Positions 6,449 to 60,522 of a stretch of DNA of 64,000 bases are shown here, piece by piece (the first letter of the stretch is position 1; every line of letters begins with the position of its first letter). The notes under the pieces are model-generated. The model was not told the origin of the DNA, ran no database searches, and saw only the letters and a list, made by a program, of their open reading frames with translations. Source of the DNA: a virus; the IMG/VR virus record IMGVR_UViG_3300019776_000919, positions 32,001 to 96,000 of that record; one strand, given 5' to 3'. Both the position numbers and the translations under genes were made by a program.

Positions 6449-7007
6449 AAAGCCAGTTTTTATTTCCACTTGCCAGTTTTGTCCGAAATTTATGGCAGAA
6501 ATTGTTCCAGTAAAATCAGGCAAAAGCCAGTTTTTAAAAAAGCTAAAAATAAAAAGTGGCTTCAGAAGTTCCAGTATCTATTAAGGAAAGAGGGTCAAAA
6601 GCCAGTTTTCCACCTTTTTTTGAAAAAAATATACATACTCTGTGTGAGAGATGAATTGGAAAAAAGTAGAAGCCATAAAAACGTCTCTTATATATATTAT
6701 ATATATAGATCTCAGGAGAAGAATATATTATATATATAAGAAGATGTATGTTTTACTGGCACTTTAATATTACAATACTTAATTCTATTTTTCTAGAAAT
6801 TTTTTCTCTCTCATAGAGTATGTATATTTTTTTCAAAAAAAGGTGGAAAACTGGCTTTTGACCCTCTTTCCCTTATAGATACTGGAACTCTTGAAGCCAG
6901 TTTTTAAAAAAGCTAAAAATAAAAAGTGGCTTTTGCCTGATTTTACTAGAACAATTTCTGCCACAAATTTCGGACAAAACTGGCAAGTGGAAATAGAAAC
7001 TGGCTTT
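6449..7007. repeat. Large inverted repeat (~200-bp arms) with GCCAGTTTT iterons and AT-rich core; candidate replication origin
   Basis: 6449-~6651 is the near-perfect reverse complement of ~6805-7007; TA-rich inner palindrome at 6686-6741; lies between convergent transcription units. Confidence 0.85.
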
Positions 7008-7164
7008 ACAAGTAAAACGTAGATGTTTACTTTACAACCTACTTAAATTTATAGACGGTAAGAAACCCACTCTTTTCTTTAGTACCTCACCCCTTCTATT
7101 TCAAACGAAAACGGGCCTAGCTTCGTTTTAAATTTAAAGGTAGTACTACGCCCTACCCTAAGCT

Positions 7165-7189
7165 AAAAAAAGGGCTTAAAAGCCCTTTT
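7165..7189 (-). terminator. Rho-independent terminator
   Basis: AAAAGGGCTT-AA-AAGCCCTTTT stem-loop; A-tract gives the U tail on the - strand. Confidence 0.7.
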
Positions 7190-7212
7190 ATCAAATTTGC
7201 TCGGAACTAGCT

Positions 7213-8896: not shown

Positions 8897-9727
8897 TTAC
8901 AGCATACTAACTAACCACTCTATATCGGCTCGGCCACCTGATGCGTTTCGGTGACCCCCGCCATTAAAATTTTTTGCTACATTGGATACGTCAAAGTTAG
9001 ATTTAGTAGCCTCGCTTCTGAAACTTAATCTAACTACGCCAGACCCGTCAATGTACCAAAGAATTGCGTAATCAATGTCCAATTGCTTGCATAACTCATT
9101 ACCCATTTCTGAAGTTAAATGAGTAGTATTTAATAGGGCAATCTTACTACCACCGTAAGTCATTAGTTTTACATTACCAGATGGTATGACTCGGCCTACC
9201 TCTTTATCTTTATATTGAGAAATTGCTTCCCCACTATTTTTCAGAAAAGAAGATCCTTCCTTGCTTGAAATGGCATCCCATGCCCCCATATCTTCTGGAA
9301 TAACAGAAAGACCTGACAGTACTGCTTTTGTATCAGGTAACTCCCATCGCCAAAGATCACGGTCTTGGATAAATTCTAATAGGGTAGGGGTTGGTACGCC
9401 AGGATGAAAATATTCCCAAGCTAGTACAGCCCCGCTTTTTTCCATGTCGAATGTAGCGTAGGGCTCGTCACTTAAGATTTCTTTTGCAGACTTATGGTGA
9501 TCTAATACTTTCAGTACTTTAGACCTAGAGTACAAATCCCGTAAGAATTCTTTACTATATGAAAAATCTGCAATGTAGACTTCAGATCCTGATTCTATTT
9601 CCGGAGTAGGATCTTTATAATCCGCTGGAATATAAATAGCTTTATCACCGAATTTTTTCCAAGCAGCATACTTAGCCCCTAAACCATCCGTACAAGGATA
9701 GTGGTGAATTACATAAATTTTAGTCAT
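8897..9727 (-). CDS. DHH/DHHA1 family phosphoesterase
   Basis: H-x-x-C-T-DG, ADF, LDHH, QDRDLW and GGGHRNASG motifs. Confidence 0.9.
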   Translation of the reverse strand: MTKIYVIHHYPCTDGLGAKYAAWKKFGDKAIYIPADYKDPTPEIESGSEVYIADFSYSKEFLRDLYSRSKVLKVLDHHKSAKEILSDEPYATFDMEKSGAVLAWEYFHPGVPTPTLLEFIQDRDLWRWELPDTKAVLSGLSVIPEDMGAWDAISSKEGSSFLKNSGEAISQYKDKEVGRVIPSGNVKLMTYGGSKIALLNTTHLTSEMGNELCKQLDIDYAILWYIDGSGVVRLSFRSEATKSNFDVSNVAKNFNGGGHRNASGGRADIEWLVSML

Positions 9728-9809
9728 TAGTGATTTGAACTTGGATTTGAATTGTAAATTGATAACCTAAAGAAAAAGGGTTTCTTTTTCCTTCGTTGAC
9801 TGAATTGGA

Positions 9810-10857
9810 TTCAATCTTATCATTCCTGATAAGATTGAAGACATCTCTGATAGATATCTTTGTTTATGTGGGGGTCGTGTTGGGTTTTATCGGGGTTTTA
9901 ATCCCCTGCACCGACAGCCTCACTAAGGACATACAGTTACTGTACATCTGAGCTACATCTTACTACCCTATTAACCAATGTAATTGGTAGTCTTTTGCCG
10001 CTATTTACTCAACGTGAAACGCCGTTATACTCCGGCTGAGTTTAAGAGAACGTTAACTCTGCACACCTCACGAGATCTGAGTACCAGGTGTTAATGGTCC
10101 AGCTGCATGCAGGATCCATGGAGGAGTGACTCTTGACCAAGTCATGCAATGACTAGGTCAGTTGGTTTCGAATAATGTATACACTATTCCTGACAGCATA
10201 TTCTTACACAATAAGATAGTTTTCGGCCTACCCTACTCTGTAAACATACACTTATCGAATACTTAACGTCTGGGTAAAGATTGAGCTTAATGAAACCATT
10301 TTCCCCGTTTCTATGAAAACTTCAGGGGGAAAAGACTATTATCGAGCAGTGACTGCTCAAAGCTTTTAATGCTACCAAAATCTTTACAAAAAAAGGATAA
10401 ACTTATCCACTGGGTATGAGGTGCTCTTCTTATTTATATAAAACTTATTAAATGTTCTATATAAGTTTTAAAAGAGACCACGTCGTAGATGTCCAATCCA
10501 GTGGCCAGTTCTTCGGTAGCCCAAGCTACCGAAAACAGCTTTGAAGATAGTTACGTTATCTTCATGCTTTTCAGCAATACTTTATCCGACTCAAATTAAT
10601 GAGTATTTCAAATCAAACAATACACTATATTTATTCATTATTTCTACTGCAGCTCTCTTTAGAACCGGTTAGTACTACTGGAGAAGACCTTATGTCGACA
10701 TATGTCGAGATCGATGTCCGCCGGGTAGTGCGTCAGTAGTCCTTGGCTAACAAAGTTAGCCAAAAGAGCTTTGAAGATAGTTACTCATCTTCCGCCGTTT
10801 GGCGTACTATATTTATATTTGATTTGAAATACAACCTAGGGTTTAACTAGGTTGTTT
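9810..10857 (-). ncRNA. Candidate large structured non-coding RNA(s) with a duplicated module
   Basis: No ORF of 60 aa or more between 9727 and 10876; many hairpins, most G-U pairs favour the - strand; two related modules at ~10470-10590 and ~10680-10815. Confidence 0.6.
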
Positions 10858-10875
10858 ACAGCACTTTAAGTCTGT

Positions 10876-11079
10876 TTAGTCAGCTAAAGCAAATTCTTCG
10901 ATTGCTGCCATTTGCGCAGGACTTCGACTCTTCCAGCTTTTTGGCCAGTTATCAGGAGTCGGGGAATCTAAAGTTTCGATACTATCGCTATCTCGAAATG
11001 CAAGGTATGCGCCTTGATTATCTTTAATAATTGCGAAACCCTCATCTGGGTATTCGATAACTTGTTGCGTCATGCACAT
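10876..11079 (-). CDS. Hypothetical protein
   Basis: 67-aa ORF downstream of tRNA-Arg. Confidence 0.5.
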   Translation of the reverse strand: MCMTQQVIEYPDEGFAIIKDNQGAYLAFRDSDSIETLDSPTPDNWPKSWKSRSPAQMAAIEEFALAD

Positions 11080-11117: not shown

Positions 11118-11194
11118 TGGCGTGTCCAGAGGGATTCGAACCCCCGACCTACTGCTTAGAAGGCAGTTGCTCTTTCCAGCTGAGCTATGGACAC
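11118..11194 (-). tRNA. tRNA-Arg(UCU)
   Basis: GTGTCCA...ACTGC-CT-TCT-AA-GCAGT...GGTTCGAATCC...TGGACAC-G-CCA. Confidence 0.95.
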
Positions 11195-11197
11195 TTA

Positions 11198-11434
11198 TTA
11201 CTTCAGGATTTCAAAGTCCATTCGATGAGTGTAAATATCATCAGCTTGGACACCGACGCTCTTAGCAATAAGTCTAACAGTTTTGAATGACGGGGAATAA
11301 TCCGCATTCGTGCTAGACGCATGGCTAAGAACTCGGCTGACAGTCGTTCTGCTCAAACCAACGTATTCAGCCAACTGTGCGTTGTTGAAGTTACCTTGAT
11401 TCTTAAGTTTACGAAGATTTTCAGCGAGTCTCAT
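11198..11434 (-). CDS. XRE-family helix-turn-helix regulator
   Basis: LAENLRKLK...QLAEYVGLSRTTVSRV...PSFKTVRLIAKSVGV. Confidence 0.85.
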   Translation of the reverse strand: MRLAENLRKLKNQGNFNNAQLAEYVGLSRTTVSRVLSHASSTNADYSPSFKTVRLIAKSVGVQADDIYTHRMDFEILK

Positions 11435-11490: not shown

Positions 11491-11520
11491 CTTATACCAA
11501 AGAATAGAAAAAAATTGAAT
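11491..11520 (-). promoter_or_regulatory. Phage promoter motif TCAA-N15/16-TGGTATAAG (representative copy)
   Basis: The + strand motif (C)TTATACCA begins at ~11491, 15562, 21430, 25590, 26096, 29865, 33971, 41205, 42686, 47041, 53343, 56380, 56991, 57890, 60332 and 63779; always upstream of - strand genes or tRNAs, most with TTGA 15-16 nt further right. Confidence 0.8.
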
Positions 11521-17480: not shown

Positions 17481-20078
17481 TTATAGACGAGGGTCAAGGA
17501 GCTTTTCTTGCTTCATTTGACCAATCATTTTAACAACGTACATTTTCCGGTCTTCATCATTTGCAGTTAGCATGGCTGATGCTAAAGCATGTTCCTGAAT
17601 ACTTGTACGGACTTTGCCTGAAATGTTCTTTTGACGACACAGACGGAGATATCGTTCCGGACGCGTATAGTCGTAACCATACACAATCCGTAGATACTCC
17701 TCTGAGCGTACTTTTAAGAACGGCAGTTCTGAGTTAGGATCTTCAGCCTTGACTACTAACCCTTCCATACCATTCTCGATAGTAAGGACATTGAAGAATT
17801 GTTTTGCAACTTCCACTTCTTCCGGCTTGGTCGTATCTATCTTCAAATAAGCGTCTTTATTTACGCTTTTAAAGTTGATAGATTGTAGCTGCTTAGACCA
17901 ATCCGTTACTGAAGTATCTGAATTATACAACACTTTGAATGGCCTAAATTCAACCGGAGTATCTTTGGTAAACAGCGCCAATGATTGGTGGAATTTCTTC
18001 AAATCTTGTTGTCGATTCGAAACATCCATTTCAGTTGCAAATCCGGTAAGTTTACTGAATTCAGAATCTGAAGCCAACGTCGTCAATTCATGATTGACCA
18101 AAAGCCCGTATGGATAAAAGTGAGAAGTAATGAGCCCCTCACCTAATGCCATCCACGGAAGAAGTTCTCCGTCGATGATCATATCTCCATAGGTCTCCAA
18201 GTCTGACGCTCTCTTAGCGTGTTCCGATAGTAGAAATTGCTTGTATTCTTCCGGAGTTTTCCCATGCACTCCTTTAATTACCCAGCCGCCACGACTAACG
18301 GCAAACGTTTTTTCAGGTTGACCCTTGTACAAATACAGCTGGCAACGACTACCCATGTATTTGCTTTCCAACGTTACTTCCGTTACTCCCCGATTTTTAA
18401 AGAAGTTAAACGCCCCTTCGAGAGGTTCGATTTTTTCATTTGAACTAGGTGCCGGAGCCATAGTTCCAGAAATATATCGAACACCGTTTTTCATGACTTG
18501 ATCCAAGAGACGTAAATCCCTTGCCTCTAAGTCATAGTCGAGGATGTTGAATTTGTTGTCTACCAGAATACCTTTTGCAAGGTCTTTAGCAACCGAAGGA
18601 TCTTCGACCCGAGTCTTGCATTTGATTTGAATTTGACTTGCAATCTTACCGTTTTCGATAAGAACTGCGGTCAGATCCCCTCCATACACAGCACCGGTAT
18701 CTAAGAAAACCTTATTTTTAAAGTTGAGCTTTTTGAACCTATCACTTTGCATCGAGGTCACATGACCAAAAATATGCAAAGGCATACTGGCATCAGCTTC
18801 TTTATAAAGCCAATTCAGATTTTCTTGGACTGATTTTTCACGGTCTTTAATTCGATAGTTTCTTTGGGCAGTTAAAGTATTGTCGTGTACTTTACCTAGC
18901 TCAGAATTCAGGCACGGCGCATGGGTAATGTAGACGGGTAGGCTACCATCTTCTGCAAACGTGTTGATAACTGCAAAAGGAAGTGATTGCTCAAAGATCT
19001 TAAAGAACTTTTCACGATGCTCCTCACTTTTCTCCAGAACCGAAACAGACGTAAAATAGTCCTTTTCAATTTCTAGATTGGGCTCAATCATCCCTTTCAG
19101 ACGCTTATAGACATAATTTTCGTGATTACCGATAATTACTATGTCGGTAGAAATACGCCCATACATCAAATCAACCATCCGAAGAGTATCGTTACCCTTG
19201 TCAAGATAATCCCCGACATGAATGATTCGATATTCTTCCGGAATTCGACTGATCAGCAGTTGCAGTTCATCAACGCATTCGTGAGAGTCTCCAATTACTG
19301 CAAACTTAGAAATCCCATCTCCCCCGTTGTAGTTAATTTCCGAGCACTCAAATTGAAGTTCAATTTTTTGCTTGGCAATTTCAGTAAGGGCGTGATCTTC
19401 CCATACTCCAGATGCGCCTTCAAACCACCAAGAGTTGTCTCGGGGAAGATCCCAGCCAAAAGACTCTTTATATGAAATCCGTAGACGCTCATCAAAGTTT
19501 TTTGCCTTAAGAGCAGGAAGGATTTTTCGGCGGAATTTGATAACTGAATTTTCAATGATTGCTTTTTCAGATTCAGTGTCTTCCTCATGGAAGTAATCCG
19601 AGCGATTCTTGTATTCAAAAGTAACTAGAACAACTTTATAGCCGTTTTCTTTACCAATGTTGAGAACCAGTTCCCGAAATTTCTCATCCATACCTGTAGT
19701 ATCTATTACTACAATCTCAGTGGAGATGGGGAAAGATACTGCTGCCCTGTATTTAGTAATGAGAAGCTTAAAAGCTTGTTCACTTACCGCCTGCATACCT
19801 TGAGTGTATTTGCTTGATGAGGCATACGGGGACAGATTTGAAATTTTCAACAAATCTTTGCGAATACGATCAGACGAGATGACCTCCCAGGGGATCATCA
19901 TTGCATCGCTCAAATTTGCAATGTCTTCAGCAAATTGAGATTTACCAGAAGAAGTGGGTCCGCAAAGAACAAACACCGTATGCGGAACCAAATTGATCTT
20001 CGGGATCAAATTGATGGGAGGTTCTGTGTTGCTAGAAGTATCGTTTGAATTCATGGTATTTTCGCTAGTCATTATCAA
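17481..20078 (-). CDS. pnkp: Bacterial-type Pnkp (polynucleotide kinase + metallophosphoesterase + RNA ligase/adenylyltransferase)
   Basis: GPTSSGKS P-loop; IGDSH, VGDYLDKG, GNHE, GHV, LDTGAVYGG; ligase motifs ESKYMGSR, DGELLPW, EGLVVK, KVR-x-x-EYLRIVYG, terminal DPRL. Confidence 0.92.
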   Translation of the reverse strand: MIMTSENTMNSNDTSSNTEPPINLIPKINLVPHTVFVLCGPTSSGKSQFAEDIANLSDAMMIPWEVISSDRIRKDLLKISNLSPYASSSKYTQGMQAVSEQAFKLLITKYRAAVSFPISTEIVVIDTTGMDEKFRELVLNIGKENGYKVVLVTFEYKNRSDYFHEEDTESEKAIIENSVIKFRRKILPALKAKNFDERLRISYKESFGWDLPRDNSWWFEGASGVWEDHALTEIAKQKIELQFECSEINYNGGDGISKFAVIGDSHECVDELQLLISRIPEEYRIIHVGDYLDKGNDTLRMVDLMYGRISTDIVIIGNHENYVYKRLKGMIEPNLEIEKDYFTSVSVLEKSEEHREKFFKIFEQSLPFAVINTFAEDGSLPVYITHAPCLNSELGKVHDNTLTAQRNYRIKDREKSVQENLNWLYKEADASMPLHIFGHVTSMQSDRFKKLNFKNKVFLDTGAVYGGDLTAVLIENGKIASQIQIKCKTRVEDPSVAKDLAKGILVDNKFNILDYDLEARDLRLLDQVMKNGVRYISGTMAPAPSSNEKIEPLEGAFNFFKNRGVTEVTLESKYMGSRCQLYLYKGQPEKTFAVSRGGWVIKGVHGKTPEEYKQFLLSEHAKRASDLETYGDMIIDGELLPWMALGEGLITSHFYPYGLLVNHELTTLASDSEFSKLTGFATEMDVSNRQQDLKKFHQSLALFTKDTPVEFRPFKVLYNSDTSVTDWSKQLQSINFKSVNKDAYLKIDTTKPEEVEVAKQFFNVLTIENGMEGLVVKAEDPNSELPFLKVRSEEYLRIVYGYDYTRPERYLRLCRQKNISGKVRTSIQEHALASAMLTANDEDRKMYVVKMIGQMKQEKLLDPRL

Positions 20079-21376
20079 GCAACCTTTTTAAAGTGAACCA
20101 TGAATGAACAAGGTTCTGAATTTATAACATCACCTAATGCAGAAACTTCTACATCAAAATGTTTAGGCGTAGCGATTGAACTAAGAAAGTCGCTTAGATC
20201 TTTCAGATCAGGTTCCCACTTGTGGTCATCGTGTCGGAATTGACCTTCTAAACCGTAGTTGACATTGAACGCATGATTAGGCATAGTAACCACTACGTTA
20301 GTAGGGCCTTCACCGCCATTTAGAATTGCTTTAAGAATCTCGATGGATTCTTTACGATCCATGTGTTCCAATACTTCTGACAACAATACATCATTGTTTT
20401 CAGCAATAGATGGATTGGAAGATAGAAATTCCATGTCAAATCTTTGATTGATGACATCGATATTTTCAATCTTGCGTTTCTTTAAACGTAAAGAATTAAT
20501 CTCGCAAATTTCAGGATCTACTTCAAACGCCAGAATCTGTGTGTAATCTGGCGACAATTTCAAAGAGTGGGACAACTCCCCGCATCCGATATCGAGCAGG
20601 CAGTCAGATACTCCTTTAGTCGAAAGAATACTTCTGACTGCATTCAATCGCTGGTTTTGATTATTACCCATTTGGAAAGTCATAGTTGCAGTATCTAAGA
20701 TACCCAATTTTCGTGCCTCTTCAAATAAAGGCCGGTTTGTTATAGCCCGTGAAATAAACAGGTGACGCAACGCATATGGGGCATCTGCGGAATTCAAAGA
20801 TCTCAAATATTTGAATACTACTTCTTTGTTCATCGGCACATACAAAGATTCGTCACTTAAAGTAACAATGATGCAGATAATTTGAAGCGTATTGAGGACC
20901 GCCGACACTGTAGGTCCAGTGACCTTAACCTTGTGGATAAAATTACTAACGTCTTTGTTCAAAGGCGTCATTTCAATTTGACATTCACCTTTGATTTTTA
21001 GCCAATTTACAATACGAGGGTTGGCTTGAATCACAACTTCTACATAAGCAGAGTTTGCAATAGGAATATCTAATTCATTACCGAGGGCTGCGGAACGTAA
21101 AGCCTCATTAATAATTTGGATGGGTGAATAGGGACTTGCATATCGAGTCAAGTCCAGATACTCAAATTCTCCGTTTTCACTAAAAGAATTTTCTAGATCT
21201 GAGTCTTTAAACAGAATTCGAAATTCTGAATTATCCGGCTTTGAAAACCAGCCGTAAATATTACCTTTGCGAACTTGTCGTTTAAAAGGTGTTTTAGATT
21301 CTTGAATCGTAGCGGGATTCTTAGAAAGGATAAAAGAAAATTGAGGATTGGATGAACCAACGGTAAGAATCGTCAT
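20075..21376 (-). CDS. hen1: Hen1 3'-terminal RNA 2'-O-methyltransferase with N-terminal ligase-activating domain
   Basis: LLDIGCGE SAM motif, EVLEH, TMPN, FRHDDHKWE; N-terminal F-x-L-x-KNP and Y-x-D-x-x-RYAS; coupled to pnkp. Confidence 0.9.
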   Translation of the reverse strand: MTILTVGSSNPQFSFILSKNPATIQESKTPFKRQVRKGNIYGWFSKPDNSEFRILFKDSDLENSFSENGEFEYLDLTRYASPYSPIQIINEALRSAALGNELDIPIANSAYVEVVIQANPRIVNWLKIKGECQIEMTPLNKDVSNFIHKVKVTGPTVSAVLNTLQIICIIVTLSDESLYVPMNKEVVFKYLRSLNSADAPYALRHLFISRAITNRPLFEEARKLGILDTATMTFQMGNNQNQRLNAVRSILSTKGVSDCLLDIGCGELSHSLKLSPDYTQILAFEVDPEICEINSLRLKKRKIENIDVINQRFDMEFLSSNPSIAENNDVLLSEVLEHMDRKESIEILKAILNGGEGPTNVVVTMPNHAFNVNYGLEGQFRHDDHKWEPDLKDLSDFLSSIATPKHFDVEVSALGDVINSEPCSFMVHFKKVA

Positions 21377-21440
21377 GTGTGTTTCCCTATACGGGTTCCG
21401 TTGTTAAAAATAAATAACCTGGCACTACTCTTATACCAAA

Positions 21441-21818
21441 TTACAACTGATTATTGAATATGGCGTTTCTTTGTTTGACAACGCTTCTATTTAAATCTTT
21501 TAAATACTCTATCTGCCTAGCAAAATACAACTTTTTCCGTTGGCTTTTTGTAGCCAATTTTTGGTCAAAAATTTGTTGTAAAGCCTCTACTTGACGAGCA
21601 TTAAGTTTTTCTGCCTCCAGTAGATCTAGTGTGTAATGAAAGCTTTCGGCCAATGTAGAATATGCTTTACCATCTATTTCAAACCACGCATTATTAACTT
21701 CGCAATAATAACCATCTCTATTAAATTTCGGAGGTATTTCCTTGCAACACTCAAGAAGTTCCTCTTCATCTAGGTTTGTCATCCAAAATTCTAACTGAAG
21801 GACTTTTGTTTTAGGCAT
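21441..21818 (-). CDS. Hypothetical protein
   Basis: 125-aa ORF overlapping the deaminase stop. Confidence 0.5.
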   Translation of the reverse strand: MPKTKVLQLEFWMTNLDEEELLECCKEIPPKFNRDGYYCEVNNAWFEIDGKAYSTLAESFHYTLDLLEAEKLNARQVEALQQIFDQKLATKSQRKKLYFARQIEYLKDLNRSVVKQRNAIFNNQL

Positions 21819-29900: not shown

Positions 29901-32127
29901 TTACAGCAACAAACTGCCACCAAAACTGGCTGCGGATTTGGTTTTAATCTTTTCAATTATTGCATAGATTTCTGTTTGAGTAACTCCGGAATGTACAACT
30001 TCCGTTTCACCCCAAGAGATGCCAACATCGCCTTCACAACCAATGGGTAATTGGAGCCAAGGAAATGCTTTCATCGGGTATTCATCCATGGTCCGATAAG
30101 TTAGGTTAATAACTTCTGCTGCTTTTTCTATGGGGCACTCAATTTCTATCGAATCGTAGCTTGATTCAAAAATATTTTCATATTTTTATGGACTATATCA
30201 TAATGTGTTTAATACCCAAGTACCAAACACATTCCGTGCGCTCTAGAGGTTTTACCACCCGGTCAGGGCTCCATACCTTAGTCTCTGAACCTTCCACCTA
30301 TTCCTAGGCGGCTTGGCTGCTGATTATCCAATCTTTCTCTTTTTCAAACTATCACGTTTACTATTACTAATTACGTTGTAGTAGAGAAAGCTCTCAGGGG
30401 TTTCCAGCAATTCACACGGTTTTCAGTTATTCCTCACGAAATAACGCCGCCTACGTTAACGGTACATGTACAAATAGCACCGAAAGGTTTAACTACTCTA
30501 TTTACTTCTGTAAAAGTAGCCAAGCCGATAGTACTAGTTGCGCTTTGAATGATTACGTTTTGACTGTTGCGCAAAGAACCGTTATAAGCGGCTGTAGGCT
30601 TGAAGCAATTATAAGTCCCGAACTGACGCTTGCGTTGGCCAAGCGGAGTAATACTGAACTGATTGTATAGTGCAAATTTATGAGCTTTTTCAATGTATTC
30701 CTTTACTTTAGGGAAAGTGTTAAAGTACATTGCAATGAGCGTTTCAGCTTCCGATTTTTCCAGGTTAAGCTGCATTGCAATGCCTGCGATTGAAGATCCG
30801 TATAAGCAGATACTCTATATGTTTCCATATAGTCTAGACTATACCATCATCCTTTTATCTGTGAATCGATAAAGGATGCTCGCCGTGTTATGGATAAATC
30901 CATCCTAGTATCATCTGTTCTAGATGACCTATGAGTCGTTGAACCATTTATAACCATCCCTGGTTATTCTGGCTGCTGATTGCCATACCTGATTTCAGGG
31001 TTAGGGTTCCAGCAATTGAGCGAGTTTGCATACTTATGTTACCACAAGTAGGTACCGTAATCAATACTAAAAGTCAAAGTCTTGCTCAGCTGGCGCAACT
31101 CTTTATATTCCCTATATTTAGGATGACTGCTGTCTGACAACACAGCAATAATCTCTTCATAAGGAATCTTTCTCATGGCACTTGCAGAGAATGAATGGAA
31201 GTCCAATCCCTCTGCAATAGCTTTCAGCATAGCTGGCTCTTTGGATATGTTTGCTAGAACCTTGACTTCAGCAGAGCTAAAGTCAAAGCTAATAAACACA
31301 TACCCCTCCCTTACAGTATAACAAGTTCTTACGTTGTATCCGTGCCTTGCTCTTGGGAGCTGGGTCAGGTTAGGATCTGAACCGGTTATACGGAATGAAG
31401 AGGTGCCAAATTGATTGTAACTGGGATGAATTCGTCCGTCTCTTTTTACCCAGTCTTTGACGTACGTTTTAATGAACGTATTATGAACCGAGGAAATATC
31501 ACGGCGAACAGCCATATCAGCTAGGAACTGAAGCTTTTCATCTTTAGTTACGTATTTACCACCTAAAGGATCTAATCCTGCAAGAGTCAATAAGGCAACT
31601 CCATCAGTAGCAGGTTCACCACCTTTCGTAGTAAACGGTACTTCAAACCCTAGTTCTTCATACAAAAAGCTAGCTACTGCAGGGCCAGAATTTAAATCAA
31701 TTTTCTTCCCAATTTGAGAGAATATCTTATCTTCTAATTGAGCTATTTGCTCAACCATCTTTCTATCAAGGAATTGATTGCGGGGGATGGAATAACCCAT
31801 ACCTGCAATTTCCAAGTCGATAAGAAATTCATGAGCTGGTATTTCTAATTCCAAAAAGCTTTGAATTATAGGCGGAGCTTTCGAGTCCACTCTATTGCCC
31901 CGATCATCAAAATCGATAATCGGAGTTTCCATTACTAAATCTGGAAAAGTCTTGGCTAAAAGTTCAGACGTAGCAATGCAATCTATGCCTGCATAAGTAT
32001 AGAGTTTTTCTTCATCGAAATCTTCATACGTAAGTTTTTCTGAGGCGCTTACTTCTGATTTCTCTTTAGACTCGCTGTTTTCAGAATCGTCAAATAGTTC
32101 GTCAATCCAAATCAGTTGTGAACTCAT
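29901..32127 (-). CDS. polA: Family A DNA polymerase, C-terminal subunit; spliced join(32127..31064, 30806..30459, 30159..29901)
   Basis: ExoIII YAGID; R-I-T-G-x-x-PNLTQLP; motif A FDFSSAEVKV; splicing restores motif B KTLTFSI|LYG and motif C TV|YDS in frame. Confidence 0.92.
30160..30458 (-). mobile_element. Group I intron 2 in polA (299 nt, no ORF), in motif C
   Basis: Exon ...ACCGU with IGS GCGG; core AAUUGCUGGAA, AAUCAGCAGCC, UUCAGAGACUA, GAUAUAGUCC; terminal G; junction GT|C restores Val-Tyr-Asp-Ser. Confidence 0.93.
30807..31063 (-). mobile_element. Group I intron 1 in polA (257 nt, no ORF), in motif B
   Basis: P1 GUAU|UG-AUUA-CGGUAC with U-G at the splice site; core AAUUGCUGGAA, AAUCAGCAGCC, UUCAACGACU, GGUAUAGUCU; terminal G; junction AT|C restores Ile-Leu-Tyr-Gly. 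Confidence 0.93.
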
Positions 32128-41504: not shown

Positions 41505-42290
41505 ATGGATCTCGGCGCGTACTATGAAAGTATAACAAAAGAACCCTTGTTAAGCAAGGAAGAAGAGTATGATTTTTTCTTAGAGATGAACGATGCGTCT
41601 ATCTCAGAAAAACGTAAAAGAGAAATTCAAGATAAAGTTATACGAGCAAATCTTAGATTTGTATTTAAGGAAGCTAAGAGACGCAGTAAAGGAGATCCTT
41701 ATCTTTTTGAAGAACTTATTGCAGCAGGTAATGATGGTCTTATCGCTGGAATGAGTAAGTATGACCCTGACAGCGGATACAGATTTCTAACCTATGCCGG
41801 GTGGTGGGTTCTTCAAAGAATGCTTAACGTCATGGGTAAACAGCGAATAGTTGCATTACCTATATGGAGGCAGCAATTATCCTCCAGAATAGAGCGAGTG
41901 ATTGAAGCCAATGAAGATATTACATTCCCCGAGCTAAAAAAACACTTCCCAGAAGTACCAGATAAGGATCTTAAAGAACTATTTGAAACTCGCTTCTTAA
42001 CCTTCTATATAGAAGATATGGGAGAAGACAGTGAATTTCAAATAGACCCTATTGAAACAGTCGTCAACACAAAACTTGACAACGAGCGTATTCAAAGCAC
42101 TGTAGAGCAGTTACCTGATTTGCATAAGCAAGTTATACAAGCTTCGTTTGGATTGATAGACGGAGATGATAAAAGAAAACCTGCAGATATTGCTAAAGAA
42201 TTAGGGATCTCCAGGGATAGGTTTAATCAAATTAAACGTGAATCTCTGGAGATGTTGCGTTCAAAATTCGGGGGAGTCAACCCCTTTTAA
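41505..42290 (+). CDS. Phage-encoded sigma70-family RNA polymerase sigma factor
   Basis: PLLS-x-EEE, ANLRFV, ELIAAGNDGL, YDPDSGYRFLTYAGWW, region 4 IAKELGISRDRFNQI. Confidence 0.92.
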   Translation: MDLGAYYESITKEPLLSKEEEYDFFLEMNDASISEKRKREIQDKVIRANLRFVFKEAKRRSKGDPYLFEELIAAGNDGLIAGMSKYDPDSGYRFLTYAGWWVLQRMLNVMGKQRIVALPIWRQQLSSRIERVIEANEDITFPELKKHFPEVPDKDLKELFETRFLTFYIEDMGEDSEFQIDPIETVVNTKLDNERIQSTVEQLPDLHKQVIQASFGLIDGDDKRKPADIAKELGISRDRFNQIKRESLEMLRSKFGGVNPF

Positions 42291-42422
42291 TCGCCGCCGT
42301 CTACTTCGTTACTGTTTGGGAAGTGCAGATGGAGGATCATCCTCATCTTTATCCCTAGGCCATGCGCCCCAGTTCCATAGACCCAGTACTGCTTTATGGA
42401 TAAGTATGGCAGCGATCATTGT

Positions 42423-42644
42423 TTAGTAGCCTCTCAGTTCGAGGGGGCTACATAAACTGCTAAATTCTAAATCCCTTTCGTCCCCAAGTTGAGGTCGTGA
42501 ACAAGAGGTACCTAGGTACCAATTCAATTCTTCAGAAGATATCTTCTTACGTGGTGTTTCAAATGGATCATTCGAACTTTCTCCGCATTGAACTACTTGC
42601 GGACGACGTTGAACTATTCCGGCTATGTTTTGAATATGTGCCAT
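42423..42644 (-). CDS. Hypothetical protein
   Basis: AGGAG RBS; behind the promoter at 42686. Confidence 0.5.
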   Translation of the reverse strand: MAHIQNIAGIVQRRPQVVQCGESSNDPFETPRKKISSEELNWYLGTSCSRPQLGDERDLEFSSLCSPLELRGY

Positions 42645-42715
42645 AGCAGGCTCCTAGCGGCGTGACAATGTTACCGCTTAATACTCTTATACCAAAACTT
42701 AAGCTTGTAATTGAA

Positions 42716-44353
42716 TTACGATTTTCTAACTATAGCTTCTTTTACCCAGCCGGGTAAAACCTTGCTGTTTCTAGAAACGAATTTATTAAATCGTTCATCG
42801 AGTAAGAATGTTACTCCGTAATCCGAAGCAGATCTATTCACTCGACCTATTTGTTGACCAAAAATTATCAAGCTCTGATAGTTATACCATTGAAAATCGT
42901 TTTGTACTTTGTCGGATACAAAGGCAGAGCTTGTATTTAGGTAAGGTACTCTAAGTATGATCTGGAATCTAGCCCGATCTTCTTTGAAGTCTACTCCTTG
43001 TTGACACACCGGAGACAGCAACACCTTAGCCTCTTTGGCTGCAAAGAACCCCTGTAACTTCTCCTGAAAGTCCATCGAAGAATGGCTAATGAATCGATCA
43101 TTGTTTAATGCATTTCTAATTTGTTCCCCTGCTAAATAGCTGGGTACATGGATAAGGCCCTTTACATCATGGAATACTGTGCAAATATTCTTGATAATTT
43201 CAATCATCCCTGCAAAATTATCATTCCATTTTGCGTGAGATGTATCGATTTGATATTTAGGGATTGCGTATATGGGTCTGTTTTCTTTCGGGAAAGACGA
43301 CCCTATTCTTACAAAGTAAGCAGAACTAGGGTCAATGCCTATGTTTTTACAATACAACTCTTTGTTATAAATTGTACCCGACATTAGGAGAATTTTTTCT
43401 CCGAACGCCAAGAGCATGGCATTTACCGCACCACCTACGTTATGAGGTACGAACTCTAAGTTTGTCCCGTGAGGTAGGCTTGTTCCCGGCCTTACTTCAG
43501 GAATGACTTCTACTGAAAAACCTTTATCAAGATTGCCGTTCATATTTACGGCCAAAATTTGCATCAAGTATTTTTCTTTAAAAGACTTATATTCCTTGTC
43601 ATGCTGCCTCATTAATTCATCACGAGCAGTTTCTTTAGGGACCAGTTCATCAGACAACAGGAATGTTTCCCAATCTTTCCATGTTTTCAGTTCATCAAAA
43701 GTACCTGGGGGAAATACCTTGGGCAAATAGATCTTTTTAGTGACAAAAGATCTAATGGTACCTTCAATTTCATGCGCCTCATCTATGATGAGAACATCAC
43801 GTTTTTGAAAGCTGTTTCCAAAACTGGATTGAAAGATAAACGAGTGGAGGTTATGGACAACCATCGAGTGAGATTGGGCTATACCCATTGCCACGGTATA
43901 TGGACAAGCCCTGTCAGAAGTGCATAGATTATACACGTCTTTATCATCCCTACAAGGGGCATCTGAGCAATTAGGCTCACCTCTTTTTGGCTGGTCTATT
44001 TTTCCTTCCTGTATTAAAGATATGACTTTTCTATAGGAAGTTGACTTTAATTCGTGAGTGCACGGGTATGCCGCCCTACCCTTCATTAAGACTAAATGCT
44101 TATCGAAATCTTCAAAGTATTGATCTTGAAGACTTTTTCTAGGAGTAATAATGTGAGCGCCGGATTTACCGTAGAATTTAGCTATTGTAGCGGCAATAGC
44201 ACTTTTACCAGACCCCACTGGGGCCTCTAAGATAACAATCTTACTGCCGCTACTAAAAGCTTTATCTATTTCCCGAATCACCAGCTCTTGGCTTTTTCTA
44301 GGTGATTCTAAAGGAAAACACTCCATTATATCTGGAGTGGTTTCGTTACTCAT
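42716..44353 (-). CDS. DinG/XPD-family superfamily 2 helicase
   Basis: EAPVGSGKS, KGR-x-x-YPC, Cys cluster, IIDEAH, MSGT, QGVDF, QQIGRVNR. Confidence 0.9.
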   Translation of the reverse strand: MSNETTPDIMECFPLESPRKSQELVIREIDKAFSSGSKIVILEAPVGSGKSAIAATIAKFYGKSGAHIITPRKSLQDQYFEDFDKHLVLMKGRAAYPCTHELKSTSYRKVISLIQEGKIDQPKRGEPNCSDAPCRDDKDVYNLCTSDRACPYTVAMGIAQSHSMVVHNLHSFIFQSSFGNSFQKRDVLIIDEAHEIEGTIRSFVTKKIYLPKVFPPGTFDELKTWKDWETFLLSDELVPKETARDELMRQHDKEYKSFKEKYLMQILAVNMNGNLDKGFSVEVIPEVRPGTSLPHGTNLEFVPHNVGGAVNAMLLAFGEKILLMSGTIYNKELYCKNIGIDPSSAYFVRIGSSFPKENRPIYAIPKYQIDTSHAKWNDNFAGMIEIIKNICTVFHDVKGLIHVPSYLAGEQIRNALNNDRFISHSSMDFQEKLQGFFAAKEAKVLLSPVCQQGVDFKEDRARFQIILRVPYLNTSSAFVSDKVQNDFQWYNYQSLIIFGQQIGRVNRSASDYGVTFLLDERFNKFVSRNSKVLPGWVKEAIVRKS

Positions 44354-59731: not shown

Positions 59732-60280
59732 TGGTAGGCCGTGTTGGATTCGAACCAACGACCAAAGGATTCGTACCACTTCGACTTTCGCCGCCGTCTT
59801 TCGACGTTCGTGGTCTGGACTATGTCTTGACCATACTACCGTCGCAGGTTAGGTCCGTGCTGTTTAGTCTCTACACCTTTCGCCTTAGGGGAGGCGACTT
59901 GGCTCGGCATTAGCTTGGAATTGTATGAACACGTCAGGAGTTCAGGAAAGGGCGCACCACAATCCTTCAGTCCATGATCACTATTCATGCCCTTCTTTAG
60001 CTTTCGCCGAATTTAACACGATTCATCCCAAATCTCACAGTAGTTCGCATTGCATCGGATTAACCTATCCTCTGAGGGGAGGATGATTGAATTATGCCTT
60101 GTGAGCATATCAATTTATTTGCAATGTTACTATACCGGCTTTTGATTTAGTTTATACGCCTTTCGGTTGAGTCGTTACGCCATCCGGGCTGATGACTACC
60201 GCTCATTTTTCGTAGATGCACAATACTGAAAATGAGATTTACTATGAGTCCTCTGCTCTAACCATCTGAGCTAACGGCCC
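59732..60280 (-). tRNA. tRNA-Ile2(CAU), interrupted by a group I intron; exons 60280-60244 and 59771-59732
   Basis: Spliced product GGGCCGTTAGCTCAGATGGTTAGAGCAGAGGACTCAT|AATCCTTTGGTCGTTGGTTCGAATCCAACACGGCCTACCA folds as a cloverleaf; resembles Ile2 rather than Met. Confidence 0.9.
59772..60243 (-). mobile_element. Group I intron (IC3, Azoarcus-like), 472 nt, no ORF
   Basis: Core GUUAAAUUCGGCGAAA, GCUAAUGCCGAGCCAAG, AAGGUGUAGAGACUA, GACAUAGUCCAG, GGCGAAAGUC; P1 CUCAU|AGUA:UACUGUGAG; terminal G. Confidence 0.92.
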
Positions 60281-60522
60281 ACTGCCAACTTTTTAAAGCA
60301 TAAAGCAATGTACAGATTTCTCTGTACTATTCTTATACCATGTTGTAATACGATTATTGAATTACTAAAGAGATCTCAGTTTGTATTTGTCATTCCTTCG
60401 GTATACAGTCTCTAACCACACCCAATGCACAACGTCTTCATTGTATTGATTTTGAGTAGTGACTAAAACCGGATACCAAGCAAACCAATTCTTCCATCCG
60501 TGGTCAGGTATGATTCTGATTC

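Follow-up and report, generated by a model that had tools for sequence, protein, structure and literature searches.

Gene content and setting of the locus

The window, i.e. the whole 64,000-nt stretch of DNA that was analysed, covers bases 32001-96000 of a 169,713-bp phage record with terminal repeats. At 9728-10875 it contains a stretch of 1148 nt in which the longest mechanically called ORF is of 51 aa; a preliminary description of the DNA had already pointed to an ORF-free region of about 1.1 kb here, with a tRNA-Arg close upstream. The stretch lies between two same-strand gene groups, all the flanking genes being on the minus strand, with an HTH gene, tRNA-Arg(UCU) and a 67-aa ORF upstream, and a DHH/DHHA1 phosphoesterase gene and a thymidylate kinase gene downstream (Table 1). 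It is the largest ORF-free gap in the genome, which is tightly packed elsewhere; those following in size are of 609 nt (window 59914-60522), 491 nt (genome 101845-102335) and 473 nt (window 6740-7212). Each of the six reading frames contains 21-32 stops, including all three kinds, so no single stop reassignment would open the region, and stop-codon reassignment was thus ruled out. The part assigned to the RNA corresponds to 41752-42875 in genome coordinates.

The wider neighbourhood includes genes connected with tRNA and RNA repair, i.e. tRNAs, Pnkp/Hen1 and DHH, with a Thg1-like gene in relatives. The motif TGGTATAAG occurs as 17 exact copies in the window, on the minus strand only and upstream of genes (e.g. 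at 11491, 15562, 21430 and 25590), and is likely a phage-specific promoter element. No copy is present inside the ncRNA locus or inside the corresponding gap of any relative, and no promoter belonging to the locus itself was recognised. The simplest inference, given that the motif is absent from the gap, is read-through from an upstream copy together with tRNA-Arg and the small ORF; tRNA-Arg(UCU) and the ncRNA locus are probably in one transcript. A consensus terminator scan gave none on the minus strand within the region.

An ORF of 58-79 aa precedes the RNA in every lineage examined, and relatives of the 67-aa ORF form about 60 clusters in the protein collection searched, none of them named. 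The ORF is a real, conserved gene. Its product has no Pfam match, and a structure model of it is weak (pLDDT 66), with nothing found by Foldseek against the PDB at E ≤ 0.001. The product is a candidate partner protein of the RNA.

Table 1. Coordinates of the ncRNA locus, its parts and its neighbours (window positions), and of gene-free stretches at the same place in relatives (positions in their own records)
Feature	Coordinates	Strand	Evidence or remarks
Pnkp/Hen1	17481-21458		part of tRNA/RNA-repair neighbourhood
Promoter-like motif TGGTATAAG, closest upstream copy	11491-11499	-	before HTH gene
HTH gene, upstream	11198-11434	-	
tRNA-Arg(UCU)	11118-11194	-	243 nt upstream of ncRNA region; ARAGORN/Rfam
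Conserved 67-aa ORF, directly upstream of RNA	10876-11079	-	alignment A7, 32-58% identity
ncRNA locus, whole	9752-10875	-	ORF-free; minus-strand fold z -15.3; colinear homology with L168/L169, L072, L154, L159; 5' side starts past small-ORF stop, 3' side closes with conserved block
9-bp hairpin at 5' boundary, directly past small ORF	10831-10855	-	analogous hairpin of other sequence in relatives
Module A	10603-10832	-	R2 72.6 bits; single-sequence fold
Module A stem P1	10832-10808 with 10624-10603	-	phage-specific; absent from L168 (alignment gaps)
Module A core	10738-10811	-	GUA; P2 10804-10793; P3 10792-10773, loop AGUAAC; AAAGCU; P4 10765-10741
Module A long arm P5	10739-10644	-	
Module B	10395-10587	-	R2 87.1 bits; fold; 18 nt identical to module A
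Module B closing stem	10587-10581 with 10401-10395	-	
Module B core	10507-10584	-	P2 10576-10565; P3 10564-10542; P4 10535-10510
Module B long arm	10504-10407	-	
Module C, diverged copy	10299-10376	-	GGUA; short P2; P3 10360-10342, loop GUCAC; P4 10333-10326 with 10306-10299
Conserved block CGUUAAGUA (block 5)	10260-10268	-	in relatives: small hairpin with AGUA in loop, or pairing with 10051-10059
Long interrupted G.U-rich hairpin (6 G.U)	10195-10252	-	mean pair probability 0.93-1.00; stable on minus strand only; poorly kept in L168
8-bp hairpin	10170-10189	-	positional homologue of relatives' GNNAC-capped hairpin; 6/9 pairs compensatory across lineages
Hairpin UGACCUAGUCAU/AUGACUUGGUCA	10134-10160	-	kept in L168
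Conserved blocks GAGUUAACG (10059-10051) and CGUUGAGUA (10014-10006)	10006-10059	-	around hairpin 10036-10021, loop GAGUAUAA
8-pair hairpin, GUAAC cap	9928-9948	-	pair probability 0.99; also in L168, where 2 pairs are compensatory
Two perfect or near-perfect hairpins (9859-9839, 9838-9811)	9811-9859	-	not kept in closest relative L168
Conserved 3' block	9752-9802	-	CAGUCAACGA; A-rich/U-rich terminator-like hairpin 9793-9769; UUUAGGUUAUCAAUUUACAA
DHH/DHHA1 phosphoesterase gene, downstream	8897-9727	-	synteny anchor
Gene-free stretches in relatives	L072:8015-9234; L073:8190-9671; L154:3924-5000; L157:3056-4172; L159:3010-4128; L165:3246-4500; L166:3345-4288; L167:2993-4500; L003:4664-5554		

Equivalent loci in related phages

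At least 10 related lineages have a gene-free stretch of 0.9-1.5 kb at the same place. The shared layout comprises an HTH gene, often a tRNA, the small ORF, the gene-free stretch, in some cases a Thg1-like gene, and then the DHH and thymidylate kinase genes. Synteny of the gap is found in L072, L073, L154, L157, L159, L165, L166, L167, L168/L169, L174 and L003; that in L002 and L007 is weaker. The closer relatives by DHH sequence (48-53% identity) came from a large protein collection, and L168/L169 from a search with the small ORF; the family is small and poorly sampled, most of its members being partial contigs. At the DNA level, a blastn search of 50,697 phage records with the region gave zero matches, blastn and nhmmer against 42 IMG/VR loci with distant DHH relatives gave nothing (most of these are without a gap there), and a DNA search of the whole records of five large relatives gave chance-level matches only.

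The closest relative is L168/L169, in which the small protein is 74% identical and the 1.1-kb gap is colinear with that of the present phage, at about 62% identity over 885 nt; similarity in the remaining gaps, including those of L072, L154 and L159, is weak and takes the form of colinear patches with 60-78% identity. The alignment of this phage with L168 contains 23 indels, only 5 of them with a length divisible by three, and the mismatch rates across the three phases are 0.446, 0.443 and 0.454. Since the indels do not come in threes and the mismatches are equal across phases, the conservation is not protein-like.

The association of the gap with tRNAs extends to its inside, with a tRNA-Met present in that of L165 and a tRNA-Ile in that of L073; tRNA-Arg(UCU) occupies the equivalent place in L168, L154 and L072. 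In L165 and L073 the transcript must be cut by RNase P and RNase Z, because the tRNA is inside the gap, which favours processed pieces. Directly past the small ORF of L168 there is a tRNA-shaped element (L168:5093-5175), with an acceptor-like stem and a GGUUCAAAUCC T-arm, that is not called by ARAGORN and has no counterpart here. A Thg1-like (3'-5' polymerase) gene lies between the RNA and DHH in L072 (9235-9678), L157 (4173-5000), L159 (4129-5004) and L174 (5307-6134); the present phage has none there, so the RNA is independent of an adjacent Thg1-like gene. In two of the relatives homing-endonuclease-like genes (LAGLIDADG, NUMOD3) interrupt or adjoin ribonucleotide reductase genes (L072:3303-4289, L174:133-957).

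Folding, repeated modules and conserved loops

The predicted folding energy of the minus strand over 9880-10875 (996 nt) is -310.5 kcal/mol, compared with -240.1 ± 4.6 kcal/mol for dinucleotide shuffles (z -15.3); the plus strand of the same segment has z -5.7. In 200-nt windows on the minus strand, values of z within the region range from -1.1 to -4.9 and are usually below -2.5; in the neighbouring genes most of them are between +1 and -2, and isolated ones reach -3.9. For the homologous region of L168, z is -8.4 on the RNA strand versus -4.4 on the opposite strand. Consistent with this bias there are G-U pairs specific to the minus strand, as the preliminary description had claimed, e.g. the three in the hairpin 10237-10228/10219-10210.

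That description had also presented the region as a chain of helices, and all the inverted repeats that it listed are present. The region folds far beyond chance, but not every hairpin on that list is conserved: the comparison with L168 shows two elements, the hairpin at 9810-9839 and the perfect 15-bp repeat 10832/10603, to be peculiar to this phage. Moreover, rather than unrelated helices, the present picture is of a repeated module together with a conserved 3' domain. Long-range helices in the single-sequence fold have low pair probability and are absent or broken in L168, where 104 of the 269 pair cells of that fold are broken (in an error-prone alignment of 55% identity). Because the long-range helices are improbable and unconserved, the robust unit is the module or hairpin, not one compact 1.1-kb fold.

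Two minus-strand units of about 220 nt, modules A and B, have an 18-mer in common and the same architecture, i.e. a closing stem, GUA, a 4-bp P2, a 7-8-bp P3 with a loop ending GUAAC, AAAGCU, an 11-bp P4 and a long irregular arm. An exact scan of IMG/VR with the 18-mer gave a single match (L044), which is inside a coding region and was taken as chance. A first covariance model, built from a single module copy, recovered the other copy of this phage as well as five in L159, L154 and L072. In the 7-row module alignment A6, standard pairs make up 95.8% of the pair cells, and 17 of 22 pairs are changed on both sides, values that none of 500 shuffles reached and against which slid partners pair at 33-51%, bearing in mind that fitting this alignment to the model favours pairing and that paralogous copies inflate the counts.

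The rebuilt model, R2 (xGUA, a 4-bp P2, a 7-8-bp P3 with a loop ending GNNAC, AAAGC, and a P4 of 6-11 bp), has only two matches in the whole genome, modules A and B, and its matches in relatives are inside the gaps and on the gene strand. The lineages have 2-4 module copies each. L168 was not used for training, and its three modules are scored by R2 at 51, 48 and 20 bits. The third unit of the present phage, module C, is matched weakly by R2 (10 bits). In a MAFFT alignment made on sequence only (A8, 8 lineages), its P3 pairs in 64 of 64 cells, with 5 of the 8 pairs compensatory and one U.G pair invariant. The invariance of the U.G pair points to the RNA strand, because on the opposite strand it is a C-A mismatch; taken together with the indels without codon phase, it argues for an RNA rather than a DNA or protein element.

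The loops are also strand-specific. Hairpins of at least 5 bp with a GNNAC pentaloop, mostly of the form A-GNNAC-U, number 32 on the RNA strand of ten gaps, compared with 0.99 in shuffles, and forms readable on one strand only are divided 12 versus 0. GUNAC accounts for 20 of the 32 caps, including 9 GUAAC and 9 GUUAC. The most enriched words in the gaps are AGUA, GAGUA and UGAGUA, the last with 21 occurrences versus 3.7 expected; words of the AGUA type are found where modules begin and in the loops of small conserved hairpins, and their enrichment is due in part to shared ancestry, not to independent recurrence.

Beyond the modules, the conserved blocks CGUUAAGUA, GAGUUAACG and CGUUGAGUA are kept in most lineages, the first of them in 9 of an initial set of 10 lineages and additionally in L168/L169, L172/L173 and L174. 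For the segment that spans blocks 5-7, RNAalifold predicts the long-range CGUUAAGUA/GAGUUAACG pairing (blocks 5 and 6) and one hairpin, and nothing else, because the alignment is poor elsewhere. A pattern joining blocks 6 and 7 gave no match in IMG/VR and five in species genomes, without further similarity, which fits a rough chance estimate. In L159 a (GTTTTT)n run at gap positions 763-845 (about L159:3772-3854) stands in for part of the 3' domain (block 6). The 3' end is the best-conserved stretch of the locus. Its motif UUUAGGUUAUCAAUUUACAA was considered as a general promoter, which is ruled out by its single occurrence in the genome.

Relationship to known RNAs and possible roles

Rfam 15 gave no match in the region at E ≤ 10, including to group I/II introns, tmRNA, RNase P and retron msr, in agreement with the preliminary description, in which the first three had been sought by eye. 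On the loci of seven relatives at E ≤ 0.5 it returned true tRNAs only. The search works on this DNA, since it found both group I introns located elsewhere in the window, at 78.5 bits each. These introns are on the minus strand at 30169-30467 and 30815-31073, about 350 nt apart, and probably split one gene, because ORFs end and start around them. Inside 9728-10875 there is no tRNA or tRNA-like call by ARAGORN or RF00005; the helix order of the modules is cloverleaf-like, without D-loop or T-loop signatures.

Two families of large phage RNA are of particular relevance. GOLLD is a structured RNA of more than 800 nt in phages and prophages, often beside tRNA islands and of unknown function (PMC12286853), and ROOL is a large phage/prophage RNA near tRNAs, without a known protein partner or function (PMC12286853). 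In the GOLLD/ROOL setting, tRNAs are sometimes inside a variable linker, and conservation is seen in the 3' part, the 5' part being variable (PMC12286853). The GOLLD model (RF02032; at least 150 bits required) has no match at E ≤ 10 in the region or in the whole 169.7-kb genome. The ROOL model (RF03087; at least 99.1 bits required) has none in the region, the relatives or the genome, although control genomes gave no signal in the genome search, which is thus weak alone. The present RNA is like GOLLD in being large, phage-encoded and near tRNAs, with a tRNA sometimes embedded and with a conserved 3' and variable 5' part. By contrast with GOLLD, it is composed of repeated modules of about 75 nt with motifs of their own (xGUA, the GNNAC cap, AAAGC). 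As with ROOL, it is a large phage RNA near tRNAs, but its architecture is different.

Other RNAs also offer parallels. The stable RNAs C and D of phage T4 (species 1 and 2) are structured, of about 120-140 nt, and located in a tRNA cluster, with the tRNAs of which they are co-transcribed and processed; their function is unknown. Compared by description only, these are single species, whereas the locus here extends over 1.1 kb as an array of repeated modules, with a 3' domain that is conserved. CsrB and RsmZ are long protein-sponge RNAs with many copies of a short GGA motif in hairpin loops; they serve below as an analogy without homology, the motif here being GNNAC or AGUA and the RNA that of a phage. 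To our knowledge, very few classes of large structured RNA have been recognised in bacteria and phages (OLE, GOLLD, ROOL, HEARO and raiA), and the function of the phage ones is open. As a kind, large structured RNAs next to phage tRNAs are already known; the new elements here are the construction from modules, the motifs and the small protein linked to the RNA, and no described family matches.

The presence of a functional RNA locus here is well supported by the comparative sequence analysis. The earlier proposal of a large structured phage ncRNA, or cluster of such RNAs, on the minus strand is thus strengthened: homology and covariation, suggested at that stage as checks along with Rfam, have given gene-free homologues in related phages and several covarying helices, there is no coding signal, and Rfam has no match, GOLLD and ROOL included. 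Going further, the segment from 10875 to about 9752 on the minus strand probably specifies a large modular structured ncRNA of a family not described before, which is found in one clade of phages of about 170 kb. Such an RNA would share its transcript with the HTH gene, tRNA-Arg and the 67-aa ORF, by read-through from the motif at 11491-11499, and this transcript may then be cut by tRNA-processing enzymes, which are proposed because two relatives carry a tRNA inside the RNA.

As to what the RNA may do, the mechanism that we favour among those considered, though with only a minority share of belief, is a multivalent platform, formed by the RNA or by its modules, that would show the repeated A-GNNAC-U and RAGUAU loops to one RNA-binding protein. 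The protein bound could be the 67-aa product, or else a host factor that is held or decoyed. The proposal is a guess from motif repetition and gene neighbourhood, prompted by the many small loops of the same kind, the ever-present small ORF and the surrounding tRNA and RNA-repair genes. A bolder version, which we regard as unlikely, is that the locus specifies a giant phage RNA of a third class, related neither to GOLLD nor to ROOL, that forms with the 67-aa protein a multivalent RNA-protein particle shielding, mimicking or decoying tRNA-like targets. If this were true, such a particle might soak up a host anticodon nuclease or another tRNA-directed defence, acting with the flanking tRNA, Pnkp/Hen1, Thg1-like and DHH genes.

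An undescribed modular family, if that is what the locus represents, would be an independent one in a GOLLD/ROOL-like setting, i.e. beside or around phage tRNAs and amid RNA-repair genes. It would be distinct from other large RNAs in its repeated modules, its individually mutable loop motifs and a constantly accompanying candidate protein. The role of giant phage RNAs near tRNAs would thus become testable in a new system, for which R2 can annotate more members.

The main mechanistic rival is that the RNA is a self-assembling, RNA-only 'ornate' particle of the GOLLD/ROOL type, multimerising e.g. via quasi-palindromic GUNAC loops. The phage origin, proximity to tRNA islands, embedded tRNAs and conserved 3'/variable 5' organisation are all as in GOLLD/ROOL (PMC12286853), and, apart from the predominance of GUNAC among the caps, GUAAC is the exact complement of the equally frequent GUUAC. 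However, complementary loops do not occur in every member, the present phage having GUAAC and GUCAC but no GUUAC among its capped loops; the number of modules varies, and there is no similarity to the GOLLD and ROOL models. Self-assembly of this type is, in our estimation, rather improbable.

We attach a similarly low probability to the region being a spacer with signals acting only in cis, i.e. terminators, pause or processing sites, or mRNA-stabilising hairpins between operons, with no RNA product. Its position between two same-strand gene groups, the lack of a promoter of its own and the terminator-like hairpins at both ends (10855-10831 and 9793-9769) are what might be expected of such a spacer. 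It is less easily reconciled with the keeping of about 1.1 kb in at least ten lineages, in which the neighbouring gene has just about 50-60% protein identity, in a genome otherwise tightly packed; nor would it account for the conservation of particular loops and linkers, the covariation of stems, or the empty consensus terminator scan of the minus strand.

It is very unlikely that the modules are retron-like msr-msd templates, used in trans by the retron-type reverse transcriptase (RT) of the phage. The idea has some structural appeal in that modules A and B are multi-hairpin units closed by inverted repeats of 22 bp and 7 bp, respectively. In each of them the 5' arm is immediately followed by a G (AGUA) and a long hairpin arm is present, which is the msr-msd outline; moreover, the phage encodes a retron-class RT without a recognisable adjacent ncRNA, and the relative G001 has both an RT homologue and weak modules. 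Retron ncRNAs, however, adjoin their RT, whereas the RT gene (genome 6001-7227) is about 35 kb from the locus. Neither the closing stems nor the long arm is conserved: the long closing stem of module A is missing in L168, and module 1 of L159 closes straight past P4, with no long arm. The GNNAC cap, AAAGC and AGUA are not retron features, and the Rfam msr models have no match. The RT itself is on the minus strand outside the window (L045:1502-2728) and is assigned by PADLOC as RT_III-A (3e-63); upstream of it are a 242-aa gene of unknown function, a possible 51-aa ORF and a TGGTATAAG motif, with no obvious msr-msd. The RT homologue of G001 (IMGVR_UViG_3300025528_000005), 50% identical, is at 106307-107197. 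An ORF-free stretch of 650 nt, 1.3 kb upstream of it (G001 104281-104930), partly AT-rich and with repeated TTGTCCAA words, is unlike the modules and may be a regulatory or origin-like region.

Still less probable is a DNA-level element, i.e. a replication origin or a packaging or recombination site in which the inverted repeats act as DNA. Inverted repeats are certainly dense, and the plus strand also folds beyond chance, but the invariant U.G and many other G.U pairs would be C-A mismatches on the opposite strand, the loops are strand-specific, in two lineages the gain in stability over shuffles is greater on the gene strand, and the region contains neither iterons nor an AT-rich unwinding block. 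Finally, a tiling of unannotated small proteins is scarcely credible: gene callers do put a 71-aa ORF in the L169/L170 gap and short ORFs in those of L158 and L159, but stops fill all frames, no ORF is common to the lineages, and the indels and substitutions follow neither multiples of three nor codon phase.
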